Notes under the pieces: model-generated
Seen by the model: only the letters and a program-made list of their open reading frames with translations
Told to the model about the DNA's origin: nothing
Database searches by the model: none
Origin: a phage
Reading direction: 5' to 3' (one strand)
DNA: 64,000 nt
Sequence record: PZ452612.1
Program-made: the position numbers and the translations under genes
Shown: positions 41,780 through 42,235 of the stretch, piece after piece
How the letters are laid out: every line of letters begins with the position of its first letter
Position numbering within the stretch: the first letter of the stretch is position 1

Positions 41780-42235
41780 TTATTTTAGATCTTCGGCCCA
41801 ATCTAGTTTTAAGGGTTCTTTGTATTCACGGTCGAGAATAACCGGAATAGCTACATCACCACTGAATGATAGTTGGCCAACGTTATATGATAACGTTATA
41901 TGTGGAGTGTAGTCGTCGAAATCATGAGTAGCACCTAAAGCTCGTGCATACTGATGACGACATCTAAGATATTCAGAATCAAGAACTAAAACCAGTACAG
42001 CGCCGTCGTCAGTTTTCCATACCTCAAAGTGTCCTGATTCGGCAACAGAATAACTACCACTAGATGTAGTATATGGTATGTTTACACGTGAATAACAAAT
42101 TGTTGAATGAAGCTTTTCACGTGGTACTGGATTAGGAATTCTTAATTTGCGCTGGAGGTCTTCCAGCGCATCAAGTGTTAATTCCGAAAATTTAGCTGCG
42201 ACGTAGAGGCCTTGTGAAAAGTCCTCAAATTTCAT
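41780..42235 (-). CDS. 57B: 57B / Acb1-like 2H phosphodiesterase (anti-CBASS family)
   Basis: 151 aa; two H-x-[ST]-x motifs (HSTI and HITL); position upstream of 57A and gene 1 as in T4. Confidence 0.7.

Follow-up and report, generated by a model that had tools for sequence, protein, structure and literature searches.

The locus described here raises the question of whether a short minus-strand ORF in a T4-like phage encodes an enzyme that cleaves the cyclic nucleotide signals of CBASS immunity, or the RNA ligase named in its public annotation. The ORF lies within a 64-kb stretch of phage DNA (hereafter the window), the first 50 kb of which differ by a single mismatch from Escherichia coli O157 typing phage 6 (NC_041864.1 / KP869104.1); a 2.3-kb query was 100% identical to the same phage, a member of Straboviridae, Tevenvirinae and Mosigvirus. 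In the record of typing phage 6 the gene is FDG80_gp156, for which RefSeq gives the name 'RNA ligase' and GenBank 'hypothetical protein'. Judging from the homology set out below, the ORF very probably encodes a functional ortholog of T4 Acb1 (gp57B), a small metal-independent 2H enzyme.

The Acb1 family, its structure, its mechanism and its biological role are already known, having been published in 2022, and the family has its own Pfam entry. Hobbs et al. 2022 analysed 273 Acb1 homologs (PMC9117128), and in the supplementary text that was searched there is no mention of typing phage 6, RB69 or Mosigvirus, or of the accession of the window protein. According to a 2026 survey of INPHARED, the anti-defence genes typical of Tequatrovirus and Mosigvirus genomes include acb1, acb2 and ipi. 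The presence of acb1 in the window is thus of little importance as a discovery, since surveys already list the gene for Mosigvirus; our literature search found no biochemical or genetic study of any Mosigvirus Acb1.

The gene, its motifs and its protein family

The interval that the first-pass annotation had assigned to a 57B gene coincides exactly, stop codon included, with a single minus-strand ORF (Table 1). Overlapping plus-strand ORFs were set aside, as they are merely 30-35 amino acids long. The two HxT/S motifs that had been claimed for the product are indeed present as HSTI (residues 43-46) and HITL (residues 112-115), both of the H-x-T form. The protein contains five histidines (H43, H69, H94, H104 and H112), and H-x-[ST] occurs only at H43 and H112.

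Two HxT/S motifs alone are nevertheless weak evidence, because 13.6% of shuffled versions of the protein have at least two HxS/T motifs; the background in window ORFs of at least 100 amino acids is a mean of 0.29 such motifs per 151 residues. Two or more HxT motifs that are each followed by a hydrophobic residue were found in only 0.16% of the shuffles. It is homology, to the Pfam Acb1 family, to PDB 7T26 and to T4 57B, and not the motifs, that places the observation far above chance.

Table 1. Positions of acb1 and of its principal features in the window
Feature	Position	Strand	Basis
acb1 (T4 gene 57B ortholog)	41780..42235	minus	ATG-start ORF, 151 aa + stop codon
H43-S44-T45 codons, first HxT catalytic motif (= T4 H44/T46)	42101..42109	minus	Alignment with T4 and FBB1
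H112-I113-T114 codons, second HxT catalytic motif (= T4 H113/T115)	41894..41902	minus	Alignment with T4 and FBB1
C-terminal lid codons, residues 144-151 (LDWAEDLK), including stacking W146	41783..41806	minus	Alignment with T4
TAATG junction, 57A stop and acb1 ATG sharing one base	42237..42233	minus	Direct sequence reading

The window protein matches the whole profile of the Pfam family PF23474, 'Anti-CBASS protein Acb1' (positions 1-144 of 144); the score is 197.3 bits, above the curated cut-off of 27 (E=1.3e-58). It also matches PHROG 755 (E=2.4e-65) and the crystallized Acb1 of the Erwinia phage FBB1 (PDB 7T26/7T27; E=1.1e-58), and NCBIfam holds no model that matches it. A single-sequence AlphaFold2 model was of unusable quality (mean pLDDT 39.4, pTM 0.29); the compact 2H phosphoesterase fold is predicted from the 63% identity over 140 aligned residues to the crystal structure 7T26. 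Homologs were detected by tblastn in 1470 phage records, 138 of which are at least 99% identical.

Comparison with T4 Acb1 and with the family

Based on activity-guided fractionation, T4 57B was found as an enzyme that degrades 3'3'-cGAMP and was named Acb1, so that the equation of 57B with Acb1 made in the first-pass annotation agrees with experiment by Hobbs et al. 2022 (PMC9117128). Knockout of 57B removed the cGAMP-degrading activity from lysates and made T4 more sensitive to CBASS (PMC9117128). The catalytic tetrad of the T4 enzyme is H44, T46, H113 and T115 (HxT/HxT), and the H44A/H113A mutant is catalytically dead (PMC9117128). The ligand is contacted by the stacking residues Y12, W74, F107 and W147 and by E141, which meets adenine N6, and a C-terminal lid (residues 145-152) shuts over it (PMC9117128); deletion of the lid abolished the activity of T4 Acb1 in vivo (bioRxiv 10.1101/2025.08.21.671373).

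Alignment with T4 57B (NP_049750.1, RefSeq) bears out the proposed identity of the window protein: 129 of 151 residues are identical (85%), 92% are similar, and there are no gaps. T4 has one extra N-terminal Met, and numbers in the window protein are therefore those of T4 minus one; apart from this Met the two proteins are of equal length. Both HxT motifs are kept in the alignment, as had been claimed, and all nine residues with an assigned function (Y11, H43, T45, W73, F106, H112, T114, E140 and W146) are identical to their T4 counterparts. A reading as a pseudo-enzyme or sponge was rejected, every catalytic residue being intact. The lid differs by a single D-to-E change (LDWADDLK in T4). The 22 substitutions that separate the two proteins all fall in variable alignment columns, and only two of them come as near as two positions to a residue with a named function: L42 in place of I and E148 in place of D, both conservative.

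The variable columns were defined with an alignment of 13 family members, with identity down to 29%, which includes T4, FBB1 and homologs from Gaprivervirus, Jiaodavirus, Serratia phage PS2, Acinetobacter phage Acj9, Krischvirus, Schizotequatrovirus and Slopekvirus, and from Aeromonas, Cronobacter and Vibrio phages. H43, T45, H112, T114, Y11 and E140 are invariant in all 13 aligned members, the columns of W73 and F106 are aromatic in all 13, and W146 is present in 11 of the 13. FBB1 Acb1, which has been crystallized in the apo form (7T26) and with 3'3'-cGAMP (7T27), shares both HxT motifs, the Tyr, the Glu and the lid Trp with the window protein, but has Phe at W73, Tyr at F106 and a one-residue insertion past the 'DG' turn. 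Compared with the 77%-identical ortholog of phage VR26, dN/dS (Nei-Gojobori) is 0.086 (dN 0.185, dS 2.16), a value that is approximate because dS is near saturation, and that clearly indicates purifying selection on acb1.

The name 'RNA ligase' implies another enzyme, one akin to LigT / 2'-5' RNA ligase that would ligate or repair RNA, with RNA ends (for example in tRNA repair) rather than immune signals as the substrate. PHROG 755 carries this label, and RefSeq and PGAP-style annotation apply it to acb1 and to many of its orthologs (including those at loci L004, L005, L006 and L010). LigT / 2'-5' RNA ligase and other cellular 2H phosphoesterases do resemble Acb1 in having two HxT/S motifs and a beta-rich core, and the Pfam model 2_5_RNA_ligase2 (PF13563) matches part of the window protein with 15.9 bits (E=0.013), below its cut-off of 27, which reflects common ancestry within the 2H superfamily. 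Those ligases act on RNA ends, whereas Acb1 acts on cyclic oligonucleotides, and the evidence goes against a ligase: the Acb1 model reaches 197 bits and the ligase model 15.9 bits; the family profile, searched against PDB with E up to 10, retrieves only Acb1 chains (plus an Acb1-like region of the Pam3 portal) and no LigT/2'-5' ligase chain; and it is a cGAMP-degrading protein, the loss of which sensitises T4 to CBASS, that shares 85% identity with the window protein (PMC9117128). No report of ligase activity of 57B was found in the literature examined. We therefore regard a ligase as extremely improbable. The name given to acb1 in the typing phage 6 record appears to be a mislabel, and on Acb1 orthologs 'RNA ligase' is a misnomer propagated from PHROG 755 that reflects 2H ancestry. 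As long as it stands in RefSeq and PHROG, the label conceals an anti-defence gene from annotation-based screens.

Some matches to the family are distant. In the portal protein of the cyanophage Pam3, the family profile finds a match in the C-terminal region (PDB 8HDS chain A, residues 492-617; E=1.6e-11, compared with E=0.058 when the single window sequence is used instead of the profile), which suggests that an Acb1-like 2H domain is fused to this portal protein. The homolog of Klebsiella phage KP15 (L012, 109..729) is extended at its C-terminus by about 50-55 amino acids and has Lys in the column of the lid Trp, and that of Vibrio phage phiKT1024 (L013, 79..597) has an N-terminal insertion; these two could be lid or specificity variants.

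Predicted mechanism and substrate range

The most likely function of the window protein would be to cleave, independently of metal, cyclic di- and trinucleotides that contain adenosine (3'3'-cGAMP, cUA, cAAA and cAAG), by which CBASS would be blunted. Cleavage of these four compounds, metal-independent and 3' of adenosine, has been demonstrated for T4 Acb1; rescue from CBASS in vivo was shown for T4, and the activity of FBB1 Acb1 was shown in vitro (PMC9117128). From orthology to the T4 and FBB1 enzymes we infer, strongly, the activity of the window protein, and also its substrate range and its in-vivo role.

The course of the reaction can be predicted from the earlier work on Acb1, from which the U-shaped pocket, the attack by a 2'-OH and the route through a 2',3'-cyclic phosphate are taken (PMC9117128). 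A cyclic di- or trinucleotide would sit in the U-shaped pocket, with the C-terminal lid shut over it, while Y11, W73, F106 and W146 would stack on the bases and E140 would read adenine N6. The adenosine would be rotated such that its 2'-OH could attack the adjacent 3'-5' phosphodiester, with acid-base catalysis by the two His/Thr pairs, H43/T45 and H112/T114. The resulting 2',3'-cyclic phosphate intermediate would then be hydrolysed to a linear product with a 3'-phosphate, for example GpAp. With the signal destroyed, CBASS effectors (Cap5, Cap4, CapV) would not be activated, and the phage would therefore escape abortive infection.

The window protein might instead be an Acb1-family enzyme with a substrate range shifted from that of T4, either sparing 2'3'-c-di-AMP or cA3 or favouring the cA3 of type III CRISPR, so that its main target would differ. 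There are the 22 substitutions between the two proteins to consider, and related 2H phosphodiesterases in the structural group of T4 Acb1 do not all prefer the same substrates, the preference being determined by the enzyme core (bioRxiv 10.1101/2025.08.21.671373). A selective force is also known: when its decoy nucleotides are depleted by a broad-spectrum Acb1, the Panoptes system is triggered, Tevenvirinae with intact acb1 are restricted by Panoptes, and escapers carry mutations in acb1 (PMC13577387; bioRxiv 10.1101/2025.08.21.671373), so that Panoptes selects against broad-spectrum Acb1. However, the 22 substitutions leave untouched every residue named for catalysis or ligand contact and every invariant column, the nearest two being the conservative L42 and E148.

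The best comparison for altered specificity is PDE-9, a phage protein deposited as 'Anti-CBASS protein Acb1' (PDB 9Q2G/9Q2Y). Like T4 Acb1 it belongs to the 2H structural group and has two catalytic His, and it degrades 3'3'-cGAMP; its lid is N-terminal rather than C-terminal, and it spares 2'3'-c-di-AMP without triggering Panoptes (bioRxiv 10.1101/2025.08.21.671373). But PDE-9 is a distant relative of the window protein (E=0.007, or 1.2e-12 with the family profile), which is 85% identical to T4 Acb1. A shifted main target is thus very unlikely, and the range known for T4 Acb1 is the one to be expected. Since product and substrate profiles are reported to vary somewhat even among related 2H phosphodiesterases, the window protein and T4 Acb1 could have spectra that are not exactly alike. 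We give very little credence to the form of this idea in which Mosigvirus Acb1 has a subtly altered spectrum, for example weaker activity on the Panoptes decoys (2'3'-c-di-AMP, cA3), and keeps its cleavage of CBASS signals; if it were true, these phages would evade CBASS as well as a guard system that punishes broad-spectrum Acb1.

A second candidate anti-CBASS gene was noted elsewhere in the window. An ORF of 81 amino acids (35403..35648, minus strand), named hypothetical in RefSeq, matches the Pfam family PF24729, 'Acb2/Tad1 hairpin domain', at 64.6 bits (E=9.4e-18), above the cut-off of 27. It is located after regB, in a region that in T4 is occupied by vs.4 (acb2). The phage thus seems, from this domain match, to carry a cyclic-nucleotide sponge (Acb2-like) in addition to the Acb1 nuclease, and the combination of the two predicts resistance to CBASS and sensitivity to guards of the Panoptes type. 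These predicted properties are relevant to the choice of T4-like phages, such as the O157 typing phage, for typing or therapy.

Genomic setting

On the minus strand the neighbouring genes are, in order, those for a gp3-like tail protein, a dNMP kinase (gene 1), the tail-fiber chaperone 57A (recognised by the Pfam family GP57), acb1 and IPI. The order 3, 1, 57A, 57B, ipI is common to the window and T4, even though T4 is a Tequatrovirus and the window phage a Mosigvirus, and in both phages the acb1 gene lies between 57A and ipI. A homolog adjoins 57A also in VR26, Jiaodavirus, PS2, RB49-like and Aeromonas phages, and among other homologs. The overlap with 57A is 4 nt in T4 but 1 nt in the window, where the TAATG junction suggests that 57A and acb1 are co-transcribed and translationally coupled. 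A scan for sigma-70 promoters over 40900..43400 gave 11 sites, compared with 9.3 +/- 2.5 in shuffles; as promoter-like sites are not enriched overall, no dedicated promoter was assigned to acb1. No terminator-like site was found downstream of the gene.

The acb1 gene is followed directly downstream by an IPI homolog (41415..41702, minus strand), which is 88% identical to T4 IPI and matches the Pfam family IPI_T4, a 'nuclease inhibitor', with E=1.3e-50; acb1 and this homolog are thus two neighbouring anti-defence genes. The 77-bp gap between them contains the sigma-70-like sequence TTTACA-N17-TACTAT (41765..41737).

Three small minus-strand ORFs (41086..41349, 38059..38340 and 37249..37578, of 87, 93 and 109 amino acids, respectively) have an IPI-like N-terminus, MKTY.EF, which resembles the sequence that targets the internal proteins of T4 to the capsid. 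The 87-aa ORF has no match in Pfam and is a member of PHROG 13302, the function of which is not known; its similarity to IPI is limited to the 10 N-terminal residues, and its product may be a protein that is packaged and injected. Promoter-like sites at 41410..41382 and 41082..41054 (minus strand) have the same hexamers, TTTACA/TATAGT, with a 17-nt spacer that includes TG, and are located in the short gaps ahead of the 87-aa ORF and of a 101-aa ORF (40720..41025), respectively. From this arrangement, the small ORFs here look like a run of early genes, each with its own promoter.

In T4, the interval between e.8 and ipI (locus L002, 900..2530) contains eight tRNA genes, two small stable RNAs and segB. 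Its counterpart in the window instead holds the protein ORF 40032..40718 (228 aa) and the 101-aa ORF just mentioned, both of unknown function, and ARAGORN found no tRNA genes in the entire window.

Far from acb1, the segment 883..3771 (minus strand), which adjoins the DNA polymerase gene, is annotated with a phosphoheptose isomerase, a bifunctional GlmU and an arabinose-5-phosphate isomerase (KpsF). An arabinosyl-hydroxymethylcytosine modification of the DNA has been reported for RB69-like phages, and these genes may form a sugar-nucleotide pathway for this modification.
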